From an uncultured Opitutaceae bacterium (GTDB taxonomy: Bacteria; Verrucomicrobiota; Verrucomicrobiia; Opitutales; Opitutaceae): a DNA stretch of 64,000 nucleotides. The DNA lies in contig CAITEC010000029.1 in assembly GCA_903891325.1 (NCBI GenBank), forward strand, positions 539 to 64,538. The letters run 5' to 3'. Position 1 is the stretch's first letter, and each line of letters opens with the position of its first letter. This document shows positions 17,829-32,662 of the stretch, in pieces. The translations under genes and the position numbers were made by a program. Below the pieces are notes generated by a model. That model saw nothing but the letters and a program-made list of their open reading frames with translations. It was not told the origin of the DNA and made no database searches.

Positions 17829-20525
17829 TCAAGCCATTCCTTTGGCGGTGAAACGGTAGCGTCCCGCCGCCAGTTCGCAAACGACGGACCCGCCGCTGCG
17901 GCGGATCCGAGTGATGCCGCGCGAGCGGGCCAGCGATCGGCCCCCCTCGGTCACGTCCGCCGCGGAGCCCTTCGCCGCGGGGGGGAAGGACGCCGTCGCG
18001 GTCGTGTTGGGCGGGACGACCACCTCCCACTCGAGGCGCCCGCCGCGGAGCTTCCATGAGCTGAGGATCCCGCCGTGGATCGACTGCAGGCTGCCCCGCG
18101 CCGAGGTGATCTCGCCGCCGGGGCGGGGGGCGAGGAGGATGTGCTTGTAGGCGGGTTTCTCCGGATCCACGTCGATCCCGGCAACCGTCGTGTAGAGCCA
18201 GGCGCCGATCGCCCCGTAGGCATAGTGGTTGAAGGAGTTCATCCCCTTGTCCTGGAACCCGCGGTCGTGGGTCCAGCCGTCCCAGCGTTCCCAGATCGTG
18301 GTCGCGCCCTGCGTGACCGCGTAGAGCCAGGAGGGCCACTGCTTCTGGTGCAGGAGCTTGTAGGCGACGTCGATGCGGCCGGCCCGGGAGAGCACATCGC
18401 TCACGTAGGCGGTGCTGACAAATCCGGTCGAGAGCTTGTTGCCGCGCAGCTCGATGTCGCGGACCAGCTCGGCCAGGAGCCGGGGCCGGAGGGCCTCGGG
18501 CGCCAGGTCGAAGTGCAGGGTGAGGACGTAGCCGGTCTGCGTCAGGGCGGCGACGAGGCCGTCGCCGGTGAGGAAGCGCCTGCGGTAGGCGCGGACAACG
18601 CGCGCGACAAGCCGGTCGCAGCGGGCCGCGGCGGCGGAATCCCCCAGGATCCGGGCTATCCGGCCCACGAGCCGCGTGCTGTGGACGAAGAAGGCGGTGC
18701 CGATCAGGTCCTTGGGCGTGCCGCCCTCCACCTTGCCGCTGCCGTCAAGGGCCAGCCAGTCGCCGTACCCCAGCCAGCCCTTCGCGTCGGGGTGCGAGCG
18801 GATGAGCCCGATCGACTGCTTCTCCAGGAAGCCGATGTAGCGCTTCAGGGACTCGAAGTGGGTCCGCAGCAGCGCGGTGTCCCCGTAGCACAGGTACATG
18901 GTCCACGGGCAGATGACGGCCGCGTCGGCCCAGGCCGGCCCGCCGTCGCGGAACGGCCCGCCGACGTGCGGGGCGACCGAGGGCATCGCGCCGGCCTCGG
19001 TCTGCGCGTCGGCGATGTCGCGCTGCCACTTGTTGAAGAAGCCGATCACGTCGCGGTTCCAGGCGGCGGTCCTGCAGAACACCTGCGCGTCGCCCATCCA
19101 GCCCAGGCGCTCGTTGCGCTGGGGGCAGTCGGTGGGGACCTCCAGGAAGTTGCCGCGCTGGCCCCAGTCGATGTTGCTCTGGAGCTGGTTCACCAGCGCA
19201 TCGCTGCAGGAGAATTCGCCGGTCCGCGGGGTGTCGCTGTGCAGGACAATCCCCGTGATGGCCCCGGGTACGGGGTCGGCCGTCGGCCCGTAGATCTCGA
19301 CGTAGCGGAAGCCGTGGAAGGTGAACTGGGACTCCCAGGTCTCGCCGGCGGGGTCGCCCCGCAGCGTGTAGTGGTCGGTCTGGCGTGCCGCCCGGAGGTT
19401 GTCCGTGTAGATGTTGCCATCGGGGCTCAGGACCTCGGCAAAGCGCAGGCGGACCACCTGACCGGCGGCGCCGCGCACCTTCAGCTGGACCCGCCCGACC
19501 ATGTTCTGGCCCATGTCGTAGATCCAGATCGGCGTCTGCCAGGTCTCGATCCGCTTCGGGGGCCCGAGCGGGCGGAGTTCCTGGGTCGCGCGCACCGGGG
19601 GCCCGATGTGCGGGGAGATCGCGATCGCCGGGGAGGGGAATATCTCGGCCGGCTGCCAGGAGCTGTCGTCAAAGTCGGCGGTGTCCCAGCCGGGCATCTC
19701 CTTGCGCGCGTCGTAGGCCTCCCCGTTGATCAGGTCGTTGTCGACGATCGGGCCGAAGGCCGTCCGCCAGGAGTCGCCGGTCGCGATCGTCTGCGTCGAG
19801 CCGTCGGTGAAGGTGATGACGACCTGCGCGAGGAGGCGCGGCCGGTCGCCGTAGTAGGCGCGCGGCAGCCAGCCCACGTGCCCGCAGTACCAGCCGTCGC
19901 CCAGGATGGCGCCGGCGGCGTTGGCCCCCCGGCGCAGCAGCCGGGTCACGTCGTAGACGTCGTACTGGACCCGCGTCGCATAGTCGGTCCACCCCGGGCT
20001 GAACACGTCGGTGCCGACGCGCCGGCCGTTGATGTGGAACTCATACAGCCCCAGTGCCGTCGCGTAGAGCCGGGCCGAGGCGATCCGGCGCCCCACGTTG
20101 AAGATGGTCCGCAGGTGGGGGCTGGGGATCCCGGACTCCGGGCCGCCGGTCAGCGAGGTGCCGATCCACGACCCGGTCCAATCGCCCCGGTCCAGGAGCC
20201 CCGCCTCCCAGAACGCCGATCCGCTCTCGGAGCGCCTCCCGCGCTCGTCCCAGGCCTGCACCCGCCACCAGGCGCGCCGCCCGGACGAAAGCGGCTTTCC
20301 CCGGTAGGCGACCTGGGCGGTCGCGTCGGAGGCCACGCGGCCGCTGTCCCACAGGTCGGGCGCGGCGCCCTCGGCGGTCGAGACGAGGACGCGGTACCCG
20401 GTCTGGCGGGCGCCGCGGCGCCCGTCGGTCTCCAGTCTCCAGCTGAGCCGGGGAGCCGGGTCGTCAAGGCCCAGCGGGTTGGCCAGGTGATTGCAGCGCA
20501 GTTCGGTCGGGAGGGTGGTGGGCAT
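17829..20525 (-). CDS. alpha-L-rhamnosidase, GH78
   Basis: N-terminus LRCNHLANPLGLDDPAPRLSWRL, typical of the bacterial rhamnosidase N-domain; six-hairpin region FLEVPTDCPQRNERLGWMGDAQVF; start at ATG 20525 just below the upstream stop. Confidence 0.9.
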   Translation of the reverse strand: MPTTLPTELRCNHLANPLGLDDPAPRLSWRLETDGRRGARQTGYRVLVSTAEGAAPDLWDSGRVASDATAQVAYRGKPLSSGRRAWWRVQAWDERGRRSESGSAFWEAGLLDRGDWTGSWIGTSLTGGPESGIPSPHLRTIFNVGRRIASARLYATALGLYEFHINGRRVGTDVFSPGWTDYATRVQYDVYDVTRLLRRGANAAGAILGDGWYCGHVGWLPRAYYGDRPRLLAQVVITFTDGSTQTIATGDSWRTAFGPIVDNDLINGEAYDARKEMPGWDTADFDDSSWQPAEIFPSPAIAISPHIGPPVRATQELRPLGPPKRIETWQTPIWIYDMGQNMVGRVQLKVRGAAGQVVRLRFAEVLSPDGNIYTDNLRAARQTDHYTLRGDPAGETWESQFTFHGFRYVEIYGPTADPVPGAITGIVLHSDTPRTGEFSCSDALVNQLQSNIDWGQRGNFLEVPTDCPQRNERLGWMGDAQVFCRTAAWNRDVIGFFNKWQRDIADAQTEAGAMPSVAPHVGGPFRDGGPAWADAAVICPWTMYLCYGDTALLRTHFESLKRYIGFLEKQSIGLIRSHPDAKGWLGYGDWLALDGSGKVEGGTPKDLIGTAFFVHSTRLVGRIARILGDSAAAARCDRLVARVVRAYRRRFLTGDGLVAALTQTGYVLTLHFDLAPEALRPRLLAELVRDIELRGNKLSTGFVSTAYVSDVLSRAGRIDVAYKLLHQKQWPSWLYAVTQGATTIWERWDGWTHDRGFQDKGMNSFNHYAYGAIGAWLYTTVAGIDVDPEKPAYKHILLAPRPGGEITSARGSLQSIHGGILSSWKLRGGRLEWEVVVPPNTTATASFPPAAKGSAADVTEGGRSLARSRGITRIRRSGGSVVCELAAGRYRFTAKGMA

Positions 20526-20545: not shown

Positions 20546-21688
20546 TCACGCGACGGCGACGCGGTACTTGGAGATGGTGTCGGCCCTGAGCGGCAGTCCG
20601 AATCCGGGCCCCTCCGGCAGGTGCATGAACCCATCCTTGATGGCCGGCTGCTTTTCCGGGAGGTCGAACCACATCGGATCGCGGCTGTAGTTGGGGAATA
20701 TCTCCACGCAGATCCCGTTGGACACCCCGGCAAGAAGGTGGAGGGCCACCTGGGGTTCCTCGTGGTGGGCCATGTTCACCCCGAAGCTCGCGCCCATCCC
20801 GGCGATCCGGCGCCACTCGGTGACCCCGCCGGCGATCGTCACGTCCACGTTGAGGATGTCCACGGCGCCGCGAAGGATCAGGTCCTTGCAGCCAAAGCGC
20901 GAGATCTCGCCCTGGCCGAGGTTCACCGGGATGCCGGCGGTGCGGACGCGGGCGTTGCCCTCGATCTGGTCGTACCAGCGGACCGGCTCCTCCAGCCACG
21001 CGAGGTTCAGGTCGGCGGCGCCCCGGGCGAAGCGCAGGGCCTCCTCGACCGTCCACGCCTGGTTGGCGTCCGTGCACAGGTGAAACTTCGGGCCGGCGAG
21101 CTTTCGCACGCGGCGGGTCCTCGCCAGGTCCTCCTCCACGGTATGCCGCCCCACCTTGAGCTTCATGCCATGGATTCCCTGGTCGAGATAGTGCTGCACC
21201 TCGGTCTCGAGGGCCGCGGCCTTGGCCCCGTCCATCACGTAGCCGCCGATCGCGATCACCGGGACCTTGTCCCGGAAGCCGCCGAGGAGCTTGTAGACGG
21301 GCTGGTTGAGCGACTTGCCCAGGGCGTCCCAGAGGGCGATGTCGACCGCCGCGATCGCCTGGGTCTTGGCGCAGTGCTTTGCCAGGTCGAGCATGTGGAT
21401 GCTTCGGTTGCCCAGGTCGATCACCGCGTCCCACATCCGCTGCCAGTGGGCCTCGACGTCGCGCACGTCCGTCCCGGCGAGCAGGGGAGCGAAGGTCTGG
21501 TTGACCACGCGGCAGACATCCATCTGGTACTGCTCCTCGTCCCCGCCGAAGACCTCGCCGACGATCCCATTGTCCAGCTCGACCCGGGTGACGATCGTGT
21601 TTCGGGAGGTGATGACGTAGGTCCCCCCCTTGAAAACGTCCTCGAGTTTCCTGACGAGCGGAATGGCTTCGATGTGCTTGATTTTCAT
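20546..21688 (-). CDS. enolase-superfamily (mandelate racemase/muconate lactonizing type) sugar-acid dehydratase
   Basis: DIALWDALGK, GMKLKVG, CTDANQAW, LEEP, GQGE metal/acid-base motifs. Confidence 0.9.
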   Translation of the reverse strand: MKIKHIEAIPLVRKLEDVFKGGTYVITSRNTIVTRVELDNGIVGEVFGGDEEQYQMDVCRVVNQTFAPLLAGTDVRDVEAHWQRMWDAVIDLGNRSIHMLDLAKHCAKTQAIAAVDIALWDALGKSLNQPVYKLLGGFRDKVPVIAIGGYVMDGAKAAALETEVQHYLDQGIHGMKLKVGRHTVEEDLARTRRVRKLAGPKFHLCTDANQAWTVEEALRFARGAADLNLAWLEEPVRWYDQIEGNARVRTAGIPVNLGQGEISRFGCKDLILRGAVDILNVDVTIAGGVTEWRRIAGMGASFGVNMAHHEEPQVALHLLAGVSNGICVEIFPNYSRDPMWFDLPEKQPAIKDGFMHLPEGPGFGLPLRADTISKYRVAVA

Positions 21689-21705: not shown

Positions 21706-21758
21706 GTCATGTCCCAACTTCTTAAATCGAATGGCGATTTAAGAAGTTGGGACATGAC
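21706..21758. repeat. perfect 23-bp inverted repeat (hairpin, 7-nt loop) in a low-GC intercistronic insert
   Basis: gtcatgtcccaacttcttaaatc (21706-21728) / gaatggc / gatttaagaagttgggacatgac (21736-21758); the right arm encodes the last 6 codons and the stop of the upstream gene. Confidence 0.9.
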
Positions 21759-22296
21759 CCCTTAATGCATTGTTGTAGAGATCCCCGCCGACGGAGTCGT
21801 TGAGCACCACCGCGGGAAAACGCCGGAAACGCATCACATGGATCGCCTCGCTGAGCAGCTCGGGGAAGGCGACGACCCGGGCCTCCTCGATGCACAGCGC
21901 AAGCAGGGCCCCGGTCCCGCCAATCGCGCCGAAATAGACTCCCTGGTTGCGGACGAGCGCCTCCTTCACCTCCGGATTCAGGTAGCCCTTGCCGATGAAT
22001 CCGCGAAGCCCCTGGGCGAGGAGGGTCGGCATGAAGGGGTTCATCCGGCCGCTCGTCGTCGGGCCGGCCGAGCCGACGACCGCGCCGGGCTTCGCCGGCG
22101 AGGGGCCCACGAAGTAGATAAGCTGGCCGGCGAGCTCGACCGGAAGGGGCTCCCCTGCGCCGATCATCCGGAAGAGCCGCGCGCAGGCCTGGTCCCTTCC
22201 GGTGAGGACCGTGCCGGTCAGCTCCACCTCGTCGCCGGCCCGGAGCCCGGCGGCGGTCGCCGGGTCGAGGGGAAGGGACAGTTCGCGGGGGGTCAC
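21739..22296 (-). CDS. Fe-S hydro-lyase beta subunit (class I fumarase / L-tartrate dehydratase TtdB-type)
   Basis: GPTTSGRMNPF motif; GTG start overlaps the alpha-subunit stop (GTGA). Confidence 0.85.
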   Translation of the reverse strand: MTPRELSLPLDPATAAGLRAGDEVELTGTVLTGRDQACARLFRMIGAGEPLPVELAGQLIYFVGPSPAKPGAVVGSAGPTTSGRMNPFMPTLLAQGLRGFIGKGYLNPEVKEALVRNQGVYFGAIGGTGALLALCIEEARVVAFPELLSEAIHVMRFRRFPAVVLNDSVGGDLYNNALRGHVPTS

Positions 22297-23135
22297 AGCT
22301 CGACCTCCTGGTGCCGGTGCGCGTGGCACTCGATGTTCACGCTGACCGGAAGGCTCGCAACGTGGCAGGCGGCGGTCTCCACCTGGACGGCGAGCGATGT
22401 GGTCTTTCCGCCGTAGCCCTGCGGCCCGATCCCGCTCGCGTTGATCTGCCTGAGGATCTCCTCCTCGAGCTCGGCGACATGGGGCAGGGGGCTGCGCTCG
22501 CCGACGCGCCGGAGGAGCGACTTCTTCGCGAGGACGGCCGAGTACTCGAAGGAGCCGCCGACGCCCACGCCGACGACGATCGGCGGGCAGGCGTTGGGCC
22601 CGGCCCGTTTGGCGGTTTCGACCACGAAGGCGACGACCCCGTCCCGCCCGTCGGCCGGCGTGAGCATCCGGAACGCGCTCATGTTCTCGCAGCCGCCGCC
22701 TTTGGCGAGCAGCCGGAGCCGGAGGGTCTCCCCGGGGACGAGCTCGGTGTGGACGACCGCCGGCGTGTTGTCGCCGGTGTTCTTCCGGAGGATGGGGTCG
22801 CCGGTCACCGAGGCCCGCAGGTAGCCCGCCTTCCACCCGCGCCGGACCCCCTCGTTGACGGCCTCCCGCAGGGTCCCGCCCGTGATTCGGACGTCCTGCC
22901 CCACGTCGGCGAAGACGACGACCAGCCCGGTGTCCTGGCACATCGGCAGGGATCGCTCCGCCGCGAGGTCGGCGTTCCTTATGATCCTCGCCAGGGTGTT
23001 CCGCGCCAGGTCCGTGGTCTCGGCCGCGGCCGCCGTCCCCAGGGCGGCGCGCATGTCCGCGCCCAGGCTGAAATTGGCCCGCTGGGACAGTTCGGCGACC
23101 GCGTCGCGGATTTGGTCGGTGGTGATTGTCTTCAA
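22293..23135 (-). CDS. Fe-S hydro-lyase alpha subunit (class I fumarase / TtdA-type)
   Basis: LPMCQDTGLVVVF and KGGGCENMS motifs. Confidence 0.9.
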   Translation of the reverse strand: MKTITTDQIRDAVAELSQRANFSLGADMRAALGTAAAAETTDLARNTLARIIRNADLAAERSLPMCQDTGLVVVFADVGQDVRITGGTLREAVNEGVRRGWKAGYLRASVTGDPILRKNTGDNTPAVVHTELVPGETLRLRLLAKGGGCENMSAFRMLTPADGRDGVVAFVVETAKRAGPNACPPIVVGVGVGGSFEYSAVLAKKSLLRRVGERSPLPHVAELEEEILRQINASGIGPQGYGGKTTSLAVQVETAACHVASLPVSVNIECHAHRHQEVEL

Positions 23136-23150: not shown

Positions 23151-24113
23151 TCAGGCGTACACGAAGTCGCCGACCGTCGCGGGCTTCGGGCTCTCGCTGG
23201 CGATCGCGAAGGCCAGCGCCTCGTCGTTGACCGCCTTCGCCTTCTCGCGGAGGGCCTGGAGCTGGGCCTCGGTCGCGCCGCGGGCGAGCAGGACCTTTTC
23301 CAGCCGGGGGATCGGGTCGGCCTTCTTCCACTTCATGGCCTCCTCCTCGTTCGCGTACTTGCCCGCCGAGATCGCGCTGTGGCGCTCCCAGCGGACGGTC
23401 TTGCACTCGATGAGCGTGGGCCCCTCGCCGCGGCGGGCGCGGGCCACCGCCTCCGCCACCGCGCCGTGGACGAGCGCCGGGTCGTTTCCGTCCACCGTGA
23501 CCCCGGGAAGCCCGAAACCGTCCGCGCGCTGCGAGATGTTCTCGATCGGGATCGCCGTGCGGGTCGGCACCGAGATCGCGAAGCCGTTGTTCTCGCAGAC
23601 GAGGACCAGCGGGATCTTCCAGAGGACGGCCATGTTCAGCGTCTCGAAGAAGGCCCCCTCGCAGGTGGCCCCGTCGCCGAAGAAGACGACGACGACCCTC
23701 CCGTTGCGCTTGAGCTGGTTCGCGAGCGCGACCCCGGCGGCGATCGGGATGTGGGCGGCGACTATCGCGTTGGTGCCCATGAAGCCCTTGTCCACGCCGC
23801 ACAGGTGCATGGACCCGCCGCGGCCCCCGCAGCACCCGGTCTCCTTGCACAGCAGCTCGGCCATGAGGCTGCGCGGCTCCAGGCCCTTGGCGATCGCGTG
23901 CCCGTGGCCGCGATAGGTCGCGAGGACCTGGTCGGCGGGCTCGAGGGCCGCGGCGGCCCCGACGGCGATCGCCTCCTGGCCGATGCACGGGTGGGTTGAG
24001 CCGGTGAAGAGGCCCTGGCGGAAGCTGGCGATCGCGTTGTCCTCGAAGTACCGGATGGTCCACATCTGCCCGTACCAGCCGAGCAGGGTTTTCAGTTCGG
24101 GTTCAGTTGTCAT
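23151..24113 (-). CDS. TPP-dependent 2-oxoacid/acetoin dehydrogenase E1 alpha subunit
   Basis: TPP-binding GDGATCEGAFFETLNMA ... ENNGFAIS. Confidence 0.9.
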   Translation of the reverse strand: MTTEPELKTLLGWYGQMWTIRYFEDNAIASFRQGLFTGSTHPCIGQEAIAVGAAAALEPADQVLATYRGHGHAIAKGLEPRSLMAELLCKETGCCGGRGGSMHLCGVDKGFMGTNAIVAAHIPIAAGVALANQLKRNGRVVVVFFGDGATCEGAFFETLNMAVLWKIPLVLVCENNGFAISVPTRTAIPIENISQRADGFGLPGVTVDGNDPALVHGAVAEAVARARRGEGPTLIECKTVRWERHSAISAGKYANEEEAMKWKKADPIPRLEKVLLARGATEAQLQALREKAKAVNDEALAFAIASESPKPATVGDFVYA

Positions 24114-24221: not shown

Positions 24222-25199
24222 TTATGCCATGGCGGTTCTGACGGCGGCCTCCACGTCGGCGGCGCCCGGGAAGACGCTGTCCTGGAGCTTGCCGGTCGGG
24301 ATGGGGAGGTCCCGGGCGGCCACCCGCTGGATGGGCGCCTGGAGGTAGTCGAAGGCGCCCTCCATGGCGCTCTGGGCGATTTCCGCCCCGGCGCCCGCGG
24401 TCTTGACCGCCTCGTGGGCCACGATGAGCCGGCCGGTCTTCCGGACCGAGGCGCAGATGCCCTCGCGGTCGAGCGGGGCGAGCGTGCGCAGGTCAAGGAC
24501 CTCGCACTCGATCCCCTCGGCGGCCAGCTTCGCGGCGGCCTCGAGCGAGGGCTTCACCATGCCGCTGTAGGTGGCGATCGTCGCGTCGGTCCCCTCGCGG
24601 GCGACGCGGAGTTTCCCCAGGGGGATCGGGTGATCCTCCTCCTCGACGGGCATCTTCGCCGCATAGAGCCGCACGTGCTCGATGAACACGGTCGGGTTGC
24701 CGTCGCGGATCGCCGCGATCAGCAGCCCCTTCGCGTCCGCGGCGTTGGACGGGACGATGACGTGCAGGCCGGGGGTGTGCATCATCCACGCCTCGAGGCT
24801 CTGGGAGTGCTGCGCGCCCAGGCCGAGCCGGTTGACGATCGGGGCCCGGAGGATGAGCGGCACGCTCACCTGTCCGCCGAAGAAATACCGCATCTTCGCC
24901 GCCTGGTTGCAGATCGCATCGGAGGCCAGGGTCAGGAAGTCGAGGAACTCGATCTCGACGATCGTCGGCATGCCGCTGATCGCCAGGCCCACGCCCCAGC
25001 CGGCCGTCGATGCCTCGCAGAGCGGGCCGTCGCGGACGCGGTCCGGGCCGAACTCATCGTAGAGGCCCTTGTAGACGCCGAAGCTCCCGCCGTAGGCGCC
25101 GATGTCCTGGCCCAGGAGCACGATGTCCTTGTTCCGCCGCATCTCGTGGCGGATGGCCTCGTTGATCGCTTCCGCCATGCTGAGTTGTCGTGTGGTCAT
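24222..25199 (-). CDS. 2-oxoacid/acetoin dehydrogenase E1 beta subunit
   Basis: MAEAINEAIRHEM...IVLLGQDIGAYGGSFGVYKGLYDEFGPDRVRDGPLCE, typical E1-beta N-terminus. Confidence 0.9.
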   Translation of the reverse strand: MTTRQLSMAEAINEAIRHEMRRNKDIVLLGQDIGAYGGSFGVYKGLYDEFGPDRVRDGPLCEASTAGWGVGLAISGMPTIVEIEFLDFLTLASDAICNQAAKMRYFFGGQVSVPLILRAPIVNRLGLGAQHSQSLEAWMMHTPGLHVIVPSNAADAKGLLIAAIRDGNPTVFIEHVRLYAAKMPVEEEDHPIPLGKLRVAREGTDATIATYSGMVKPSLEAAAKLAAEGIECEVLDLRTLAPLDREGICASVRKTGRLIVAHEAVKTAGAGAEIAQSAMEGAFDYLQAPIQRVAARDLPIPTGKLQDSVFPGAADVEAAVRTAMA

Positions 25200-25217: not shown

Positions 25218-26009
25218 TCAGCGCCCGGCGCGGGATGCGGGGGCGTTGCGCCGCCGCGGGCCCGTGTAGGTGATCTCCGCGGGCTCCGCCGCCTTGAAGG
25301 GCCGCTCGCGCGTCATCTGCTCGTGGGCGTGCGCCGCATACCCGGGAGCCCGGCCGATGACGAAGAACGCCCGGCCCAGCCGGGCATCCATGCCCAGGTC
25401 GCACATGAGGGCGGCGATCACGCCGTCCACGTTGAGCGGAAGGCGCTTGCCGAAGACGGCGGTGGTCGCCCGCTCGATTCCGAGCGCCGCGCGGGTGTGC
25501 GACCCGGCCAGCTTCCATTTCCGGGCCAGGGACAGGAGAACCTTCGTGCGGGGATCGCTCCGGTGGACCGGGTGGCCGTAGCCGGGCATCCGCCGCTTCG
25601 CCGCCTGGAGCCCGCGCAGGACCGCGGTCCCCGTCTTCCCCTCCCTGACCGCCTGCGCCAGGATCAGCGCGCAGGGCTCGATCGCCCCGCCGTGCACGTC
25701 GCCGATCGCGCTTACGCCCGCGGCGACCGCGGTGGGGAGGGGAACCCCGCACGAGGCGACAAACCGGACCGCATCCACGCTGGGGGAGGCCAGGCTGTGC
25801 TCGCAGCAGGAGACCAGGATCGCCTCGACCAGGAGCCCCTCGCGTCCGCGGGGCAATTCGCCGGTGAGCAGGAGGTGGACGACGTCCCCGAAGGACCGCC
25901 GCCGCGTGAGCTGCTCGATGGGGTACCCCCGGACGAGAATTTCGCCGGGCCGGACACGGGAGATCGAGGTTTTCCAGAATTCGCTCATGGCAGGGGGGAG
26001 GTTGTCCAA
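25218..26009 (-). CDS. short citrate-synthase-fold protein (citryl-CoA lyase-like)
   Basis: 263 aa; GYGHPVHRSDPR (citrate synthase His loop) and AHAHEQ; lacks the N-terminal part of full-length citrate synthases. Confidence 0.8.
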   Translation of the reverse strand: MDNLPPAMSEFWKTSISRVRPGEILVRGYPIEQLTRRRSFGDVVHLLLTGELPRGREGLLVEAILVSCCEHSLASPSVDAVRFVASCGVPLPTAVAAGVSAIGDVHGGAIEPCALILAQAVREGKTGTAVLRGLQAAKRRMPGYGHPVHRSDPRTKVLLSLARKWKLAGSHTRAALGIERATTAVFGKRLPLNVDGVIAALMCDLGMDARLGRAFFVIGRAPGYAAHAHEQMTRERPFKAAEPAEITYTGPRRRNAPASRAGR

Positions 26010-26040: not shown

Positions 26041-26946
26041 TCATCGGGCCGGGGTCGTCATCCCGGGGGCGCCCAGTCCCTCGAGGATGTCGTCGAACGC
26101 GTCGGCCACGTGCACGCCGACGGAGCGCAGGGCGTCGGCCTTCCCGCGGACCGACCCTCGCCCCCCCTCGACGATCACCGCGGCGTGGCCGAAGCGGACG
26201 CCCTCCAGGTCGTCCACGAAGCGGCCGGACAGGAAGGCGTTGATCCGCAGGCGGCTCGGCTTGCGCGCGAGCCGCTCGGCGAGCTGCTCCTCGGCGCCGC
26301 CGCCCGGCTCGCCGTAGATCACGACCGCGTCGGTCCCCGGGTCGTCCTCGAGCATCCCGATCAGGTCCGTGAAATTGGCGCCGATCACCGGGTCGCCGCC
26401 GACGCCGACGGCGATGCTCTGCCCGACGCCCCGGCTGGTCAGGAAACTGGCGATCTCCGTTGTCATCCCGCCGCTTCGCGAGAGGACCGCGGTCCGCCCG
26501 GGCATGAAGGAGCGCCGCACGTTGTCCACCCGGCCGCCGATCGTCCCCAGCTTGGCGACCCCGGGCCGGATCAGCCCCAGGGTGTTTGGCCCGATGACCG
26601 TGCAGCCGGCCTCCCGCGCGGCGACCAGCAGCCGGCTTGTGTCCAGCCGCGGGACGCGCTCGGTCATGATCAGGCAGAGCTTGATCCCGCCCGCGAAGGC
26701 CTCGAGCGCCGCGGCGGGCACGGCCGGGGCCGGGACCGAGATGATGGAGACGGTGGGACCGTGCCGGCGGACCGCCTCGGCGACCGTGTCGTAGACGGGC
26801 ACGCCGTGGACCTCCCGGCCGCCCTTTCCCGGGGTCACCCCGGCGACAATCGGGCTGCCGTACGCCAGGGAATCCTCGACCATTGCCGAGGCCTCGCGGC
26901 CGGTGATGCCCTGGACAAGGATGCCCGCCTTTGGATCAAGCAGCAT
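26041..26946 (-). CDS. acyl-CoA synthetase (ADP-forming) alpha subunit, SucD-like
   Basis: VQGITGREA, IGPNTLG, SRSGGMTTE and the phosphohistidine loop RFGHAAVI. Confidence 0.9.
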   Translation of the reverse strand: MLLDPKAGILVQGITGREASAMVEDSLAYGSPIVAGVTPGKGGREVHGVPVYDTVAEAVRRHGPTVSIISVPAPAVPAAALEAFAGGIKLCLIMTERVPRLDTSRLLVAAREAGCTVIGPNTLGLIRPGVAKLGTIGGRVDNVRRSFMPGRTAVLSRSGGMTTEIASFLTSRGVGQSIAVGVGGDPVIGANFTDLIGMLEDDPGTDAVVIYGEPGGGAEEQLAERLARKPSRLRINAFLSGRFVDDLEGVRFGHAAVIVEGGRGSVRGKADALRSVGVHVADAFDDILEGLGAPGMTTPAR

Positions 26947-28117
26947 GGGTCACCGCCAATCGCGCCGCCTCGTCGAGCGAGACCTCGCGCCCCAGGGCGC
27001 GGATCCCGGCCGCTGCCATGATGGCGCGGGCCTCGTCTTCCCAGGAGCCGGGGATCCGGAAGACGGCGATCGTGCCGGCCGCCGTTCGGCCTGCGCGATC
27101 CAGCCCCAGCAGGACGCCGCGGGCCATGACGTCGGCCCGGGTGTTGTTCACGACATTCATGATGACGGCGAGCTTCCGCACGCCGGGTTTTCCGAGAAGG
27201 AGCGCGGTGAGGGCGGCCACCTTCTCCTCGGTGGGATTCCCGCCGACCTCGCAGTAGTTTGCCGGGTTCCCCCCGTGGCGCTGGATCGCATCGAAAACAG
27301 TCAGGCTCGCGCCGCCCCCGCCGATCAGCAGGGCCAGGTCGCCGCCGAACTCGACCACCCGGCCGGCGACGCCGCGGTGGTCCAGGGCGTCGATCCTCGC
27401 GGCCTCCGCCTCGAGCGGCGTCGCGGGCCGGCCCAAGGATCCCTGGGAGATGGCGCCGAGGGGCGCCAGGCGCACCTGCTGCCGCGCGGCCGCGTCGTCG
27501 TCGATTTCCACGCGGGCATCGAGGCCGATCAGGATTCCATCCGTCGTTTCCGCGAGCGGGTTGATCTCCACGGTGATCGCGTCGCATTCCACGAGGGCGC
27601 GCGTGACCTTCTCGAGCACCCGCCCGAGTTCCGCGGCGACCCGCGCGTCGATTCCGAGCCCGTCCACCATTTCCGCCCCGGCGGATGCCGGCAGGGGGCC
27701 GCGGGGATCGAAGCTGCGCCGGGCGACGTTGCGGGACGATTCGACCTCGATGCCCCCGGCCGCCGCGAGGATCGCGACCGGCAGCTTCGCGGCGCAGTCC
27801 CAGGCCGCGCCCACGTAAAATTCGCGCCGGATGGAAACCCGGGGTTCGACGGACACGGCGGCGATCCGGTGCCCCCTCAGGGTCGTCCCCAGCAGCTCGG
27901 CCGCCGCCGTCCACGCCGCGCCCGGGTCGTTGGCCACCTTGACGGCGCCGGCCTTGCCGCGGCCGCCGAAGGGGACTTGCGCCTTGACGACGACCGGGCC
28001 GCCGATCTCCGCGGCAGCCTCGCGCGCCGCGTCGGCCGACGCGGCGACGGTCCCGGCGTTCAGGTTCAGGCCGAACCCGGCGAGGAGCCGTTTTCCCTGG
28101 TGCTCGAGCAGCCTCAT
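26936..28117 (-). CDS. acyl-CoA synthetase beta subunit, SucC / citryl-CoA synthetase-like (ATP-grasp)
   Basis: MRLLEHQGKRLLAGFG N-terminus, VVVKAQVPFGGRGKAG, GGNPANYCEVGGNPTEEKV; ATG 28117 overlaps the upstream stop (ATGA). Confidence 0.9.
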   Translation of the reverse strand: MRLLEHQGKRLLAGFGLNLNAGTVAASADAAREAAAEIGGPVVVKAQVPFGGRGKAGAVKVANDPGAAWTAAAELLGTTLRGHRIAAVSVEPRVSIRREFYVGAAWDCAAKLPVAILAAAGGIEVESSRNVARRSFDPRGPLPASAGAEMVDGLGIDARVAAELGRVLEKVTRALVECDAITVEINPLAETTDGILIGLDARVEIDDDAAARQQVRLAPLGAISQGSLGRPATPLEAEAARIDALDHRGVAGRVVEFGGDLALLIGGGGASLTVFDAIQRHGGNPANYCEVGGNPTEEKVAALTALLLGKPGVRKLAVIMNVVNNTRADVMARGVLLGLDRAGRTAAGTIAVFRIPGSWEDEARAIMAAAGIRALGREVSLDEAARLAVTHAA

Positions 28118-28590
28118 GGCGCGATGCCGCCGGCCTTCTTCACGTCGTCGAGGGAGATCCTGCCCCCCGGGCCGGTCCCGGGGATCGAGCCCAGGTCCAG
28201 GCCGAGATCCGACGCGAGCTTCCGCGCCGCCGGCGCGGCGCGGATGCCCCCGGCAGGCTCGGGCGCCGGTGCGGGGCCGCCTGCCGCAGCGGCCGGTCCG
28301 GCCGCGGAACCGGGGGCGGCACCGCTTCCCGGTTCGTCCAGGGGCTCGTCCGCCCCGGTCGTGACGATGCAAAGGAGCGCCTTCTCCCCGATGGTGTCGC
28401 CCTTCGCCACGCAGAGCCTGCGGATGAAGCCGGCCACGGGGCAGGGCGCCTCGACGACGCTTTTTTGCGTCTCGATCTCGACGATCGGCTGGCCCGCCGC
28501 GACCGGGTCGCCCACGCCCACAAGCCACCGGGCGACCAGGACGCTCTCCATGGTCAGTTCAAGTTGCGGAAGCAGGACGGCGGTTTGCAT
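28114..28590 (-). CDS. lipoyl domain + peripheral-subunit-binding domain protein (E2 lacking its catalytic core)
   Basis: Lipoyl motif QPIVEIETQKSVVEAPCPVAG; Ala/Pro/Gly linker; PSBD AAPAARKLASDLGLDLGSIPGTGPGGRISLDDV; stop right after the PSBD. Confidence 0.85.
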   Translation of the reverse strand: MQTAVLLPQLELTMESVLVARWLVGVGDPVAAGQPIVEIETQKSVVEAPCPVAGFIRRLCVAKGDTIGEKALLCIVTTGADEPLDEPGSGAAPGSAAGPAAAAGGPAPAPEPAGGIRAAPAARKLASDLGLDLGSIPGTGPGGRISLDDVKKAGGIAP

Positions 28591-28602: not shown

Positions 28603-28902
28603 TCAGAATTCCTTGACGTTGAAAAACCGGGCCTCGGGCGGCCGGCTCCAGCAGCGGGCGTAGGCCGCCGCGATCCTATCGTGGCCGGGGCTCCGGCGCC
28701 ACTCCATGAGCCGGCGCAGGCTCTCAAACTCCACGACGACGTCGACCTCCTCCGGGCGGGCCGGGTTGGCGGGCGTGAGCCGGCGCAGGGAGATGAAGCC
28801 CGGCCGCGCGGAGGCGAGCCGGTGGTGCTCGCGGATCACCCGGCCGAAGGCCCGGCGCCCGGCCGGGGTGAGGAAGTGGCGGACCTGGATGGCGACCTTC
28901 AT
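28603..28902 (-). CDS. ABM (antibiotic biosynthesis monooxygenase-like, ferredoxin-fold) small protein
   Basis: 99 aa; VVVEFESLRRLMEWRRSPGHDRI resembles the ABM signature; ATGA overlap with the upstream gene. Confidence 0.7.
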   Translation of the reverse strand: MKVAIQVRHFLTPAGRRAFGRVIREHHRLASARPGFISLRRLTPANPARPEEVDVVVEFESLRRLMEWRRSPGHDRIAAAYARCWSRPPEARFFNVKEF

Positions 28903-30026
28903 ACGCGCTCGTTGCGGCCGCTCCGGGCCGAGCGGTAGGCCGTGTCTATGATCTCGACGGAGCGCATTGCGGCCTCCCCGGGCGAGAAATTCTCCGTCGT
29001 GAGCCCGAGGATCAGCTCGACGAACTGGTGGGGCGGCCCGTCGCAGCGGTAGGCGGCATCGCCCTTTCGCAGGGGGACCACCTCGTGCCGGCCGTCGTGG
29101 GTGTCCAGGGAGAGGTGGTCGCGGGCGATGTCGAGCGAGAGGACGCCGCGGTCCCCGAAAATCCTCACGTCGAGCTGGAATGACCCGGGCGTGCCGGGAG
29201 GAAGCGTCGCCGAGCCGGAGACCGTCCCAATCGCGCCGCCCTTGAACCGGACGCTGATCGCGTCGTACATGTCCACCCGGGAGCCGACGTTGCTCAGGTT
29301 GGCAAAGACCGAGGTCGCCCGCAGGCCGGTCAGCCAGAGCATGAGGCCGGTGGCATGCGAGAGCTGGCCCTGGCCGTAGCCGCCGCGCGAGACCCGCGGG
29401 TCCGACCAGGTGGAAAGGCTGCTGGGGACGTAGGCGGTGTCCGTGAAGTCGAAGGACTTCCCCGAGAAGAGGTTCTTCACCGGGGAGGCCATGTGGCAGA
29501 GGACGTAGTCGATCCGGCCCACGCTGCCGCGGTCCATCAGGGCCCGGGCCCGAAGGCCGATCGGGCGGTGGTTCCAGCCGTAGGGGACGACGACGTGCAG
29601 CCCCTTTCGCGCGGCCAGGGCGACGATCTTCCGGGCATCGGCCGCGTCCGTCGTGAAGGGCTTCTCGACCATCACGTGGCAGCCGGCCCGCAGGGCGGCG
29701 AGCGCCTGGGCCGCATGGGTCGCGTGGGGCGTGGCGATCACGACCCCGTCGAGGTCCTGCCGCAGCAGTTCGCGGTAGTCGTCGGTCGTGTGCGCAAATC
29801 CGAAATCCCGCCGGCAGCGCTCGAGGACCGCCGGATCCAGCCCGCAGACCGAGACCATCTCGACGTCGCGGCGCGCCGCCAGGACGGGCATGTGGTTGGT
29901 GGTCGCCCACCAGCCCGCGCCGATGAACCCGAGCCGCGCCCGCCGGGTCCGCGACTGCGGGCGCGCCGCCATCCGCCGGATCGCGTCCGGGGAGAGGACG
30001 CCCACGTTTCGCTCCTGGCGCCTCAT
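28899..30026 (-). CDS. Gfo/Idh/MocA family oxidoreductase
   Basis: LGFIGAGWWATTNHMP Rossmann motif and HVMVEKP; ATG 30026 overlaps the upstream TGA. Confidence 0.9.
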   Translation of the reverse strand: MRRQERNVGVLSPDAIRRMAARPQSRTRRARLGFIGAGWWATTNHMPVLAARRDVEMVSVCGLDPAVLERCRRDFGFAHTTDDYRELLRQDLDGVVIATPHATHAAQALAALRAGCHVMVEKPFTTDAADARKIVALAARKGLHVVVPYGWNHRPIGLRARALMDRGSVGRIDYVLCHMASPVKNLFSGKSFDFTDTAYVPSSLSTWSDPRVSRGGYGQGQLSHATGLMLWLTGLRATSVFANLSNVGSRVDMYDAISVRFKGGAIGTVSGSATLPPGTPGSFQLDVRIFGDRGVLSLDIARDHLSLDTHDGRHEVVPLRKGDAAYRCDGPPHQFVELILGLTTENFSPGEAAMRSVEIIDTAYRSARSGRNERV

Positions 30027-30763
30027 AGCATGAACCAGCCGCCGTTGATGTCGAAGGTCGCGCCCGTGCAGTAGCTGCACTCGTCGCTCGCCAGGAAGGC
30101 GATCAGGGCCGCCACCTCGGCGGGCTTGCCGAGGCGCTTGAGCGGGATCTGGTCGGCGATCGCGCGGACCTTCTCCGGCGGGAAATTGCGCATGATCTCC
30201 GTGTCGAGGACCCCGGGGGCGACGCAGTTGATCAGGATGTTGTCGGCGGCGACCTCGCGGGCGATCGACTTGCTGAACATCACGATCCCGCCCTTGGTGC
30301 CGCTGTAGATGCTCGCGTTGACGATCGCGCCCGTGCGCCCGGAGCTGGATGCGACGTTGACGATGCGGCCGCCGCCCTGGCGCTTCATGACCGGGCAGAC
30401 CGCCTGCATCAGGAAGTACTGGCTCTTTGCGTTGATGCCCATCAGCCGGTCCCAGTCCTCCTCGGTCGAGGTCTCGAAGGGAAGGCGGGGGCAGACCCCC
30501 GCGTTGTTGACCAGGATGTCGATCCGGCCGAAGTCGCGGACGACGTCGGCAACGAGTTGGCGAAGCTCCGCGACGCGGGAGACGTCCACCCGGTACCCGC
30601 GCGCCTCCGGCCCGCAGTCGGCGGCCGCCTTCGCAACCTCGGCCTCCTGCAGGTCCGCGAGCGCGACCCGGGCGCCCTGGGAGGCGAGGGTACGGGCGGT
30701 GACGGCGCCCAGCCCGCGGGCCGCGCCGGTCACGATGGCCACCTTGTTGTCGAGTCGGAACAT
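30023..30763 (-). CDS. short-chain dehydrogenase/reductase (SDR)
   Basis: VTGAARGLG, NNAG, YSGTKGG catalytic YxxxK. Confidence 0.9.
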   Translation of the reverse strand: MFRLDNKVAIVTGAARGLGAVTARTLASQGARVALADLQEAEVAKAAADCGPEARGYRVDVSRVAELRQLVADVVRDFGRIDILVNNAGVCPRLPFETSTEEDWDRLMGINAKSQYFLMQAVCPVMKRQGGGRIVNVASSSGRTGAIVNASIYSGTKGGIVMFSKSIAREVAADNILINCVAPGVLDTEIMRNFPPEKVRAIADQIPLKRLGKPAEVAALIAFLASDECSYCTGATFDINGGWFML

Positions 30764-30785: not shown

Positions 30786-31520
30786 TCAGCGGGCCAGCCA
30801 GCCTCCGTCCACGGGAAGGATTGTCCCGTGGACGTAGTCGGAGGCCGCCGAGGAGAGGAACACGGCCGCGCCCGCGAGGTCGGCCGGCCGGCCCCAGCGG
30901 CCCGCCGGGATCCGCTCGAGGATCTGCCGATTCCGGGTGGCGTCGTTCTGGAGCGCCGCGGTGAGGTTGCTTTCAAAATAGCCCGGGGCGATCGCGTTCA
31001 CGTTGATACCCTTGGGGGCCCATTCATTGGCGAGGGCCTTGGCGAGCTGGGCCACGCCGCCCTTGCTGGCGGAGTAGGCCGAGCAGCGCAGGCCGCCCGA
31101 GAAGGAGAGCATCGAGGCGATGAAGACGATCTTTCCGCTCCCCTGGGCCAGGAAGTGCCGCCCCGCCGCCTGGGCGCACTCGAAGGCCGAGCTGAGGTTG
31201 GTCGCGATCGTGTCGTTCCAGTCCGCCGGCGTGAATTCCTCCACGCTGGCGCGGCGGGTGATCCCGTGCGCGATCACGATGATGTCCAGGCCGCCCATCC
31301 GCCGGATCGCCTCGGCGACCACGCCGGAGGCGTCGCCCGGCTTGGAGATGTCCCCGGGAAGGAAGGTGAAGCCGGCCTTGGCGAGGTCGTCGGCGCGGGC
31401 CTGCGAGCGGCCGGACACCGCGACGCGGGCCCCGGCGTCGCGGAGCGCGTCGGCCATGCCGCGGCCGAGGCTGCCGGTGGCTCCTGTTACCAGTGCAATC
31501 TTGTTGTCGAGTCGGAACAT
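30786..31520 (-). CDS. SDR, KduD/gluconate-5-dehydrogenase-like
   Basis: VTGATGSLG, YSASKGG, C-terminal HGTILPVDGGWLAR; tandem paralogue of 30023-30763. Confidence 0.9.
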   Translation of the reverse strand: MFRLDNKIALVTGATGSLGRGMADALRDAGARVAVSGRSQARADDLAKAGFTFLPGDISKPGDASGVVAEAIRRMGGLDIIVIAHGITRRASVEEFTPADWNDTIATNLSSAFECAQAAGRHFLAQGSGKIVFIASMLSFSGGLRCSAYSASKGGVAQLAKALANEWAPKGINVNAIAPGYFESNLTAALQNDATRNRQILERIPAGRWGRPADLAGAAVFLSSAASDYVHGTILPVDGGWLAR

Positions 31521-31528
31521 GGGTGAGG

Positions 31529-32662
31529 TCAGTTGAATTGGTACTTGCGGACGACGTCCTCGCGGACGGTGACGCCCAGCCCGGGCTGGTCCCGGACGGC
31601 GATGAAGCCGCCCTTCTGGACCCAGGGGTCGCTGACCAGCTCGTGCTGCATCGGCGACTCGTGCGGCTTGAAGTCCATGCACCATCCCGCGCGCGAGGCG
31701 GCCAGGAGGTGCACGCTCGCCGCCGTATTGAGGGCGCTGCTCCAGGTGTGGGCGCTGAACTTGAGGTTGGCCGCCTCGATCAGCTTGACCACCTTGATGC
31801 AGCCGGTGATGCCGTGGATCCGGCCCGGGTCGATCTGGATCACGTCGACCCCGCCGCCGGCGATCAGCCGGCGGTACCCGGCCACGTCCCACTCCTGCTC
31901 GCCGGTGCCGATCCGCGTCGCGCAGCGGCTGCGCAGCATCGCGTGCGCCGGATAGTCCTGCGGGTGGAGCGGCTCCTCGATCCAGAGAAGCCGGTAGGGC
32001 TCGAGCTGCGCCAGGCGCTCGATTGCCGTGTGCACGTCCCAGCGCACGCGCGCCCCCAGGACATCCAGCACGAGGTCAAGGTCCGGCCCGATCACCTCCC
32101 GAATCCTCCGGGTCAGCTCGAGGTCCCGCTTGGCGTTGGTGCCGAAGACCGACTGCGGGCGCGTGCCCCAGCCGCCCTTGACGATGTTGTAGCCCTGCTC
32201 CTTGAACCAGGCGAACTCGCGGACCGACCAGTCCAGGTCGTCCATGTCCAGGTGGATCGAGGCCATCGCGATCACCTGGTCGCGGAGCTGGCCGCCGATC
32301 AGGTTGCACAGCGGCTGGCCGAGGAGCTTTCCCTTCAGGTCCCAGAGGGCCATGTCCACCGCGCTCACGGCGAAGGCGGCGATCCCCTGCGGCCCGTACC
32401 ACCAGATCCGGTCGAGCATCTGCTGCCAGCGGGCCTCGACGTCGAGGGCGCACTGGCCGACCAGGAGGGGCGCGAAGCCCTGCTCGATGATCACCTTGGT
32501 CGCCTGGCTCGGCTCGGGGAACTGGCTGATGCACTCCCCCCAGCCGACGGCGCCGTCCTCGGTCTCGACGCGGGCGAGGGTGATGTAGCGCAGGACCCCG
32601 TGGTCGTGCGGCTCGGGATAGCGGAGCGGGTGGGCGGTTACGGACTTTATGCGGGATTTCAT
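31529..32662 (-). CDS. enolase-superfamily sugar-acid dehydratase (second copy)
   Basis: AVDMALWDLKGK, LWIEEPL, GTGEQE, IQIDP motifs. Confidence 0.9.
   Translation of the reverse strand: MKSRIKSVTAHPLRYPEPHDHGVLRYITLARVETEDGAVGWGECISQFPEPSQATKVIIEQGFAPLLVGQCALDVEARWQQMLDRIWWYGPQGIAAFAVSAVDMALWDLKGKLLGQPLCNLIGGQLRDQVIAMASIHLDMDDLDWSVREFAWFKEQGYNIVKGGWGTRPQSVFGTNAKRDLELTRRIREVIGPDLDLVLDVLGARVRWDVHTAIERLAQLEPYRLLWIEEPLHPQDYPAHAMLRSRCATRIGTGEQEWDVAGYRRLIAGGGVDVIQIDPGRIHGITGCIKVVKLIEAANLKFSAHTWSSALNTAASVHLLAASRAGWCMDFKPHESPMQHELVSDPWVQKGGFIAVRDQPGLGVTVREDVVRKYQFN

Follow-up and report, generated by a model that had tools for sequence, protein, structure and literature searches.

A lipoyl and peripheral-subunit-binding protein without an acyltransferase core

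The DNA analyzed, here called the window, is a stretch of 64,000 nucleotides (positions 539 to 64,538 of contig CAITEC010000029.1, assembly GCA_903891325.1) from an uncultured Opitutaceae bacterium. Within a minus-strand operon that also encodes both subunits of a pyruvate dehydrogenase (PDH)-like E1 component, the window contains a gene for a small protein that consists of a lipoyl domain, a flexible linker, and a peripheral-subunit-binding domain (PSBD). This is the domain order of a dihydrolipoamide acyltransferase (E2) up to the position at which the catalytic core should begin. Analysis of the gene, its homologues, and its genomic setting confirmed it as a genuine gene for a free lipoyl-PSBD protein, predicted to be a functional, core-less descendant of an E2; the protein is called the carrier in the following.

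The carrier gene runs on the minus strand from position 28590 to position 28114 and encodes 158 amino acid residues, whereas the plus-strand frame over the same interval does not represent a gene. A previous sequence-only reading of the window had listed an open reading frame at these positions; the frame is real, has the reported length, and contains the quoted peptides in its translation, and only the strand had to be corrected. The lipoyl domain comprises residues 7 to 74 (28369 to 28572, minus strand; PF00364, E value of 2.5e-13). Its predicted lipoyl-lysine, K43, is located in the motif ETQKS, is encoded by the AAA codon at 28462 to 28464, and is invariant in 21 homologues. A linker rich in Ala, Pro, and Gly follows at about residues 81 to 115 (28246 to 28350, minus strand), visible as variable and gapped columns in the alignment. 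The PSBD, which binds E3 or E1 components, occupies residues 116 to 151 (28138 to 28245, minus strand) and matches the full PF02817 profile (positions 1 to 36 of 36, E value of 6.4e-14). The protein stops 7 residues past this domain. In the Pfam scan with a threshold of E ≤ 0.01, Biotin_lipoyl and E3_binding were the only matches to the 158 residues, with no hit to 2-oxoacid_dh or to GCV_H (PF01597). An AlphaFold2 model built on 21 homologues agreed with this domain structure: residues 1 to 80 were predicted as a beta-barrel with a predicted local distance difference test score (pLDDT) of 71 to 88, residues 86 to 114 of the linker as disordered (pLDDT below 50), and the PSBD as two helices with a pLDDT of about 80. 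The architecture of lipoyl domain, linker, and PSBD that had been read from the letters alone was thus borne out by Pfam and AlphaFold2.

The TGA stop codon of the carrier gene at 28114 to 28116 overlaps the ATG start codon of the following SucC-like gene at 28115 to 28117 in the arrangement ATGA. The product of the SucC-like gene can be aligned with its homologues from residue 1 onward, so that the overlap with an intact start, as proposed before, was also correct. Since the start of the SucC-like gene is intact and overlapped by the carrier stop codon, there is no room for a hidden core. A frameshift or assembly error concealing a catalytic core, named by the sequence-only reading as an explanation that would overturn it, could be ruled out: in addition to the overlap, a six-frame search of contig C29 for the acyltransferase core domain PF00198 found none, and the identical protein was present on 19 public contigs from NCBI, JGI, ENA, and Logan.

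Short homologues are conserved and under selection

A search for proteins of similar length yielded about 25 homologues of 142 to 194 residues with 47 to 91% identity and both domains; about 20 short homologues share the gene order of the carrier operon. An alignment of 21 homologues contained as invariant residues, besides K43, the PSBD-region residues A118, P120, A121, A122, R123, G138, G140, P141, G143, R144, and I145. All complete short homologues end 3 to 15 residues past the PSBD. At loci L007, L008/L009, L112, L124, and L128 and on the contigs of P0003, P0006, and P0008, the short gene was complete, the next gene started 4 to 15 nt downstream, and no remnant of an E2 core was found beside it.

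The ratios of nonsynonymous to synonymous substitution rates (dN/dS) between short forms ranged from 0.18 to 0.36 for pairs with useful divergence outside the window clade, among them 0.28 for L007 versus L008 and 0.20 for L115 versus L123; for the clade of the window sequence, the value of 0.10 comes from a single pair, the window versus L112. Within this pair, dN was 0.12 in the lipoyl domain, 0.15 in the PSBD, and 0.21 in the linker. The comparison of these coding sequences showed that the short forms evolve under purifying selection. Together with the invariant functional residues, dN/dS values between 0.10 and 0.36 rule out a decaying pseudogene.

Full-length orthologues and repeated loss of the core

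When longer proteins were searched, E2 proteins of 355 to 375 residues with a PF00198 domain were found, which are 45 to 57% identical to the carrier over its whole length; taken over all loci, the full-length E2s at the operon position of the carrier measure 347 to 388 residues and are 45 to 59% identical to it in the N-terminal 150 residues. These full-length proteins, seen in Lentisphaerae, Verrucomicrobia, and Tepidisphaerales, hold the operon position of the carrier: the gene for an ABM-like protein (or another gene in its place) comes before them, the SucC-like gene after them, and E1 beta and E1 alpha follow downstream. A different order, E1 beta and E1 alpha followed by a long E2, was seen at L120. 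The catalytic motif of the DHRxxDG type was kept in all 13 long forms examined, with the last Asp being Asn in 2 of them, and in the trees the short carrier was nested among the long forms. Similarity, position, and trees together showed the carrier to be orthologous to full-length E2s at the matching position of a deoxy-sugar or sugar-acid operon. The ancestral operon is accordingly reconstructed as coding for an ordinary dehydrogenase of E1 alpha/beta and E2, with the gene in the window as a derivative minus the core. Because long forms with an intact motif occupy the carrier position, the short form should be a lineage-specific core deletion, and the lost part is taken to be the catalytic and scaffolding core of about 210 residues, removed by a clean deletion. 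At one locus in a metagenome-assembled genome (MAG) of the Acidobacteriota (L066:5566-5984), only fragments of an E2 core, with no match to a lipoyl domain or PSBD, are located upstream of a SucC-like gene, possibly from another E2 that was rearranged or degraded.

The sequence-only reading would have been overturned if all orthologues in the same context were full-length E2s. Many relatives indeed carry full-length E2s, but not all of them, and short ones recur. What the relatives show is best described as a core loss that happened repeatedly and was retained. In a tree of the lipoyl domain plus PSBD with 51 rows, the short forms appeared in three separately supported groups. The first was the window clade with 12 rows, all of them short (support 100/99). 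The second contained L115, L123, and L126 (100/99) and had a long form as its sister, and in the third, the short forms L007, L008, L124, and L128 were mixed with the long forms L125 and P0085 (99/96). When the 12 verified short rows were constrained to form a single clade apart from 20 long rows, the log likelihood fell by 111.6 (approximately unbiased [AU] test, p = 2.4e-8), and at least 5 state changes were required. The long L125 and the short L128 differ by a dS of only 0.34 in the region common to both.

The trees of the neighboring genes have to be considered against this. In the E1 beta and SucC trees, all short-form loci grouped with a few long forms in a single sub-lineage of the operon, which requires 2 to 3 state changes, and if only the strongly supported branches of these two trees were used, they would permit one loss. 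A single ancestral loss was nevertheless rejected on the basis of the N-terminal tree and the AU test, with the E1 beta and SucC trees being less decisive. The core is therefore reconstructed as lost at least two times within one operon sub-lineage, and probably three or more times.

The operon and its probable origin

In the order of transcription, the minus-strand operon starts with genes for an enolase-superfamily dehydratase, two short-chain dehydrogenases/reductases (SDRs), and an ABM-fold protein, followed by the carrier gene and those for SucC-like, SucD-like, and citryl-CoA-lyase-like (Ccl-like) proteins. It continues with E1 beta, E1 alpha, a two-subunit Fe-S hydro-lyase, a second enolase-superfamily dehydratase, and a GH78 rhamnosidase. 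All coordinates given below refer to the minus strand.

The first dehydratase (31529 to 32662) and the two SDRs (30786 to 31523 and 30023 to 30760) were assigned by Pfam, and the order of a dehydratase and two SDR genes is repeated in L006 to L009, L012, and L034. The ABM-fold protein of 99 residues (28603 to 28902; Pfam ABM, E value of 5e-5) is possibly mutarotase-like. Its gene is located directly upstream of the E2 or lipoyl-PSBD gene in most related loci (L006 to L010, L034, L112, L116, L124, and L125), and in L011 and L012 it is swapped for a gene encoding a protein of 456 to 486 residues with a weak Arabinose_Iso_C match.

Downstream of the carrier gene, the SucC-like ATP-grasp subunit (26936 to 28117; Pfam ATP-grasp_2 and Citrate_bind) resembles the large subunit of citryl-CoA synthetase, including a domain similar to the citrate-binding domain. 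Its nearest Protein Data Bank (PDB) entries were the large subunits of succinyl-CoA and citryl-CoA synthetases (3ufx_B, 1.4e-45; 6hxq_B, 3.9e-45). The SucD-like CoA-binding subunit (26041 to 26946; Pfam CoA_binding and Ligase_CoA) reached 251.8 bits with TIGR01019, which is under the cutoff of 353. The Ccl-like protein (25218 to 26009, start codon uncertain), with a C-terminal citrate-synthase fold, scored 225 bits with NF004869 and was over the cutoff of 212; its nearest PDB entry was the citryl-CoA lyase of Hydrogenobacter (6hxp, 2.2e-55).

The presence of E1 alpha and E1 beta in the carrier operon had been recognized before, and Pfam placed both, as intact genes, on the minus strand. E1 beta (24222 to 25199; Transket_pyr and Transketolase_C) is PDH-like and of the alpha2beta2 type, with 333.7 bits in NF006667, over the cutoff of 321. 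It is closest to the PDH E1 beta of Geobacillus stearothermophilus (PDB 3duf_B/1w85_B, 5e-79), a protein that reportedly was crystallized with a bound PSBD. E1 alpha (23151 to 24113; E1_dh, 3.6e-77) is a PDH-like paralogue, which matched human PDH E1 alpha in the PDB (6e-57) and reached 333.7 bits in TIGR03182, under the cutoff of 393.85. The Fe-S hydro-lyase is composed of an alpha subunit of the Fumerase family (22293 to 23135; PF05681, 1e-107) and a Fumerase_C beta subunit with an approximate start (21739 to 22311; PF05683, 5.6e-44). The second copy of an enolase-superfamily acid-sugar dehydratase (20546 to 21688; Pfam MR_MLE_N/C) had arabinonate and talarate/galactarate dehydratases as its best NCBIfam matches, under the respective cutoffs.

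Because of these genes, and since related loci also carry RhaT, rhaM, GFO/IDH/MocA oxidoreductases, and sugar ABC transporters, the predicted setting of the operon is the catabolism of a 6-deoxyhexose or a sugar acid. This context and an E1 of the PDH or acetoin type make acetyl or another short acyl group a plausible product of the E1. Schemes for its reaction, either an oxidative decarboxylation of 2-keto-3-deoxy-rhamnonate or an acetoin-like cleavage of a methyl-ketone intermediate, are guesses. The operon was probably acquired horizontally, because the carrier and SucC-like genes were not found in other species of the genus (24 in one search and 38 in another) and because the best matches to the genes between positions 17829 and 35000 of the window came from other verrucomicrobial, planctomycete, and lentisphaeral MAGs.

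Other dehydrogenase components of the genome

The assembly of 3.29 Mb is distributed over 140 contigs and is 94.7% complete. A genome-wide search with the 2-oxoacid_dh profile, which the sequence-only reading had proposed as a check, covered all six frames and detected E2 cores on two contigs and no others, C33 and C115. Contig C33 encodes the housekeeping PDH with E1 alpha, E1 beta, and an E2 of 445 residues, all over the NCBIfam cutoffs, and C115 encodes the 2-oxoglutarate dehydrogenase with SucA and SucB. The only lipoamide dehydrogenase (Lpd) over the curated cutoff is located on C126. The earlier statements that neither an acyltransferase core nor an E3 is encoded near the carrier gene thus hold for the window. 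LipA and, judged from a domain match, a LipB/LplA-type enzyme are present in the assembly.

Three accessory PDH-like E1 pairs, in the window and on C16 and C107, have an E1 alpha under the equivalog cutoff; each is accompanied by a core-less lipoyl protein and none by a core of its own. The pair on C16 (C16:3219-7362, L210) is a fused E1 alpha-beta of 659 residues, followed by a lipoyl-only protein of 81 residues, an SDR, and the rhamnose symporter RhaT. On C107 (C107:9296-14005, L211), a lipoyl-only open reading frame precedes E1 alpha and E1 beta, which are interleaved with three genes for PhyH-type dioxygenases, and neither a PSBD nor an E2 core was found near this pair. A fourth core-less protein with lipoyl domain and PSBD (159 residues; C113:20271-20750, which is L033:8272-8751, minus strand) is encoded next to FabH, with a YmdB-like gene on its other side. 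The family to which it belongs contains more than 2000 protein clusters, is labeled "biotin/lipoyl-containing protein" in Opitutaceae MAGs, and was found in nearly all of the 24 genomes sampled from the same genus. Altogether, four core-less lipoyl proteins stand against two E2 cores in this genome.

Possible function of the carrier

The best explanation for these data is that the carrier is docked to E1 and deacylated in trans, probably by the E2 core of the housekeeping PDH, a proposal that should be given about an even chance. The carrier would be lipoylated by the LipA and LipB/LplA-type enzymes, its PSBD would dock it to the PDH-like alpha2beta2 E1 of the operon, and E1 would reductively acylate the lipoyl domain tethered in this way. 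The acyl group would then be taken off in trans, with the PDH E2 core encoded on C33 as the likeliest agent, above all if the acyl group is acetyl, and the single lipoamide dehydrogenase of the genome would re-oxidize the carrier. In complexes of the alpha2beta2 type, the PSBD binds E1 beta or E3. E1 components are specific for their cognate lipoyl domain, while E2 cores and E3 tolerate foreign lipoyl domains as substrates and can even use dihydrolipoamide in free form. In this proposal, the lipoyl domain and the PSBD were kept and the core was expendable because another E2 core could discharge the carrier in trans.

We infer this mechanism of discharge, and several points argue against it. 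The C33 core shares only about 28% identity with those of the long-form orthologues, a PDH core may refuse an acyl group other than acetyl, and a lipoyl domain that is not tethered is a kinetically worse substrate than a tethered one. It agrees with the proposal that in the long-form genome G056, the operon E2 was the only core detected, but three other long-form genomes contain two or three further E2 cores. Since long-form operons occur in genomes with other cores, core availability alone cannot be the driver of the loss, and the comparison of these genomes, for which a whole-genome E2 inventory of one short-form genome was the counterpart, is only suggestive of a discharge in trans.

In a wider and more speculative version, the core-less carriers would represent a previously undescribed, scaffold-free use of lipoate in sugar catabolism. 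E1 would cleave or decarboxylate a keto intermediate derived from a 6-deoxyhexose onto a diffusible lipoyl-PSBD or lipoyl-only protein, which, similar to H-protein, would pass its acyl load on to any available acceptor, be it a borrowed E2 core, a CoA ligase, or a ketosynthase. This fits the repeated loss of the core, the three E1 modules without an E2 in one genome, and the large paralogue family linked to FabH, and it may be considered as a tentative possibility, with the odds clearly against it.

Alternatively, the carrier may hand its acyl group directly to a non-E2 enzyme of the operon and bypass the transfer to CoA by an E2 core. Candidates would be the SucCD-like ligase, by phosphorolysis yielding an acyl-phosphate and ATP, or the Ccl-like protein. 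The tight translational coupling of the carrier and SucC-like genes by the ATGA overlap agrees with this possibility, and so does the conserved order of carrier, SucC, SucD, Ccl, E1 beta, and E1 alpha. The excess of core-less lipoyl proteins over E2 cores points in the same direction, and the paralogous carrier beside FabH hints at non-E2 acceptors in general. The gene context, however, separates these enzymes from the state of the core. SucCD-like and Ccl-like genes are also located beside full-length E2s with an intact motif in relatives. The short carriers of L115, L123, and L126 have E1 beta and E1 alpha but no SucCD or Ccl genes nearby (gluconolactonase, short carrier, E1 beta, E1 alpha, cupin, VOC, SDR, SDR). 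Conversely, Poribacteria, Latescibacterota, and Pirellulales have the SucCD/Ccl module with no E1 or E2 beside it; such SucCD-like modules, with or without a Ccl-like gene, were found in L035 to L057, L065, L067, and others and are 58 to 62% identical to that of the window. Moreover, no gene gain in the operon accompanied the loss of the core. A direct transfer to these enzymes is therefore unlikely, and the comparison across long, short, and E1/E2-free loci did not support the SucCD-like or Ccl-like proteins as a specific substitute for the core. Of the earlier proposal of a free swinging-arm carrier, the genuine, conserved, and selected core-less lipoyl-PSBD protein encoded together with E1 remains, whereas the adjacent CoA-ligase/lyase proteins as its specific partners do not.

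Among the modules without E1 and E2, that of L065 is combined with the Fe-S hydro-lyase and a second enolase-type dehydratase, and that of L040 is located near a lyase of the HpcH/CitE type.

The acyl-lipoyl thioester may also be hydrolyzed, spontaneously or by a thioesterase. E1, carrier, and E3 together would in this case carry out an NAD-linked oxidative decarboxylation with a free acid as the product, and the SucCD-like ligase would activate this acid or the next one. Such a reaction accounts for the CoA ligase gene following the carrier gene and for a dispensable core, but it wastes the energy of the thioester, which the long-form relatives conserve, and Pfam indicated no thioesterase in the operon. 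Short carriers without the module and modules on their own count against it in the same way as above, making hydrolysis rather improbable. Still less probable is the E3BP-like adaptor suggested by the sequence-only reading, which would recruit E3 or E1 to a core encoded elsewhere, with the lipoyl group off the main catalytic path. The PSBD is the most conserved segment, and with E3BP, an E2 paralogue without catalytic function is already known; however, the carrier possesses no core-forming domain with which it could join an E2 core, its lipoyl-lysine is invariant, and its lipoyl domain is constrained as much as the PSBD. Finally, a non-functional remnant, be it a decaying E2 pseudogene or an artifact of assembly or frameshift, might be considered because orthologues with a full core exist and the operon, which was not found in the 38 other species searched within the genus, could be a recent and dispensable acquisition, but it is hardly credible in view of the 19 contigs of several sources that carry the exact sequence, the overlap with an intact next gene with a core remnant in no frame, the dN/dS values, and the 12 diverged short sequences of 66 to 91% identity in one supported clade.

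Implications

According to textbooks, the E2 core of a 2-oxoacid dehydrogenase complex both catalyzes the formation of acyl-CoA and serves the other components as their scaffold. A natural E2 that has lost its core at least twice and is still under selection would mean that a part regarded as indispensable can be dropped. Long and short orthologues within one type of operon provide a built-in comparison for the dispensability of the E2 core, and they make it testable how well untethered lipoyl carriers work and which enzyme unloads them. The data also draw attention to an uncharacterized operon of Verrucomicrobia, Planctomycetota, and Lentisphaerae, groups relevant to the turnover of plant and algal glycans, in which genes for deoxy-sugar or sugar-acid metabolism are combined with an ATP-citrate-lyase-like module and an E1. 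Genes such as that of the carrier are currently labeled "E2 component" or "biotin/lipoyl-containing protein," and it would be a mistake to infer a complete dehydrogenase complex from each of them.

Comparison with known systems

A literature search for natural core-less E2s or for the carrier operon found neither; the publications retrieved dealt with canonical PDH, the hybrid complex of Corynebacterium, and Qnc-type systems. With the canonical E2 of a PDH with an alpha2beta2 E1, the carrier shares the lipoyl domain, the flexible linker, the PSBD, orthology, and the type of E1. It lacks the DHRxxDG-bearing core that provides catalysis and scaffold and should be able neither to pass an acyl group to CoA nor to form a 24-mer or 60-mer. 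By its domains and descent it derives from the E2 family, yet the part that defines this family (PF00198, DHRxxDG) is missing. Recombinant lipoyl-PSBD "didomains" are used as in vitro tools; the carrier is their natural and selected equivalent rather than an engineered fragment.

Like the carrier, E3BP (protein X) of the eukaryotic PDH is an E2 paralogue that combines a lipoyl domain with a PSBD and lacks acyltransferase activity. It retains, however, a core domain, inactive but still built into the E2 core, for which the carrier has no residues. GcvH resembles the carrier, in the function proposed here, as a free lipoyl protein that shuttles between loading, unloading, and re-oxidizing enzymes, but it is a member of a different family and has no PSBD, and the carrier matches the E2-type Biotin_lipoyl domain and not GCV_H. 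The acetoin system AcoABCL also combines a PDH-like alpha2beta2 E1 in a catabolic operon with an E2 that has a non-canonical C-terminal part. In AcoC (PRK14875 type), this part is a domain of the alpha/beta-hydrolase type, whereas the carrier is without any C-terminal domain and, in the corresponding profile NF011457, reached only 69.6 bits, under the cutoff of 307, over positions 3 to 122 of 372. The neighbors of the carrier gene resemble CcsAB and Ccl of Hydrogenobacter thermophilus, as indicated by the NF004869 score of the Ccl-like protein and the match of the SucC-like protein to 6hxq_B; CcsAB and Ccl serve in the reductive tricarboxylic acid cycle, while the module in the window appears in sugar catabolism, independent of the state of the E2 core.

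The nearest functional precedent for a lipoyl domain and an acyltransferase core on separate polypeptides is the actinobacterial hybrid of PDH with 2-oxoglutarate dehydrogenase (ODH), in which OdhA/Kgd works in trans with lipoyl domains that belong to AceF/DlaT (PMC7568260). There, an E1o-E2o fusion without lipoyl domains borrows them from another protein; here, in the opposite arrangement, a carrier without a core would borrow the core.

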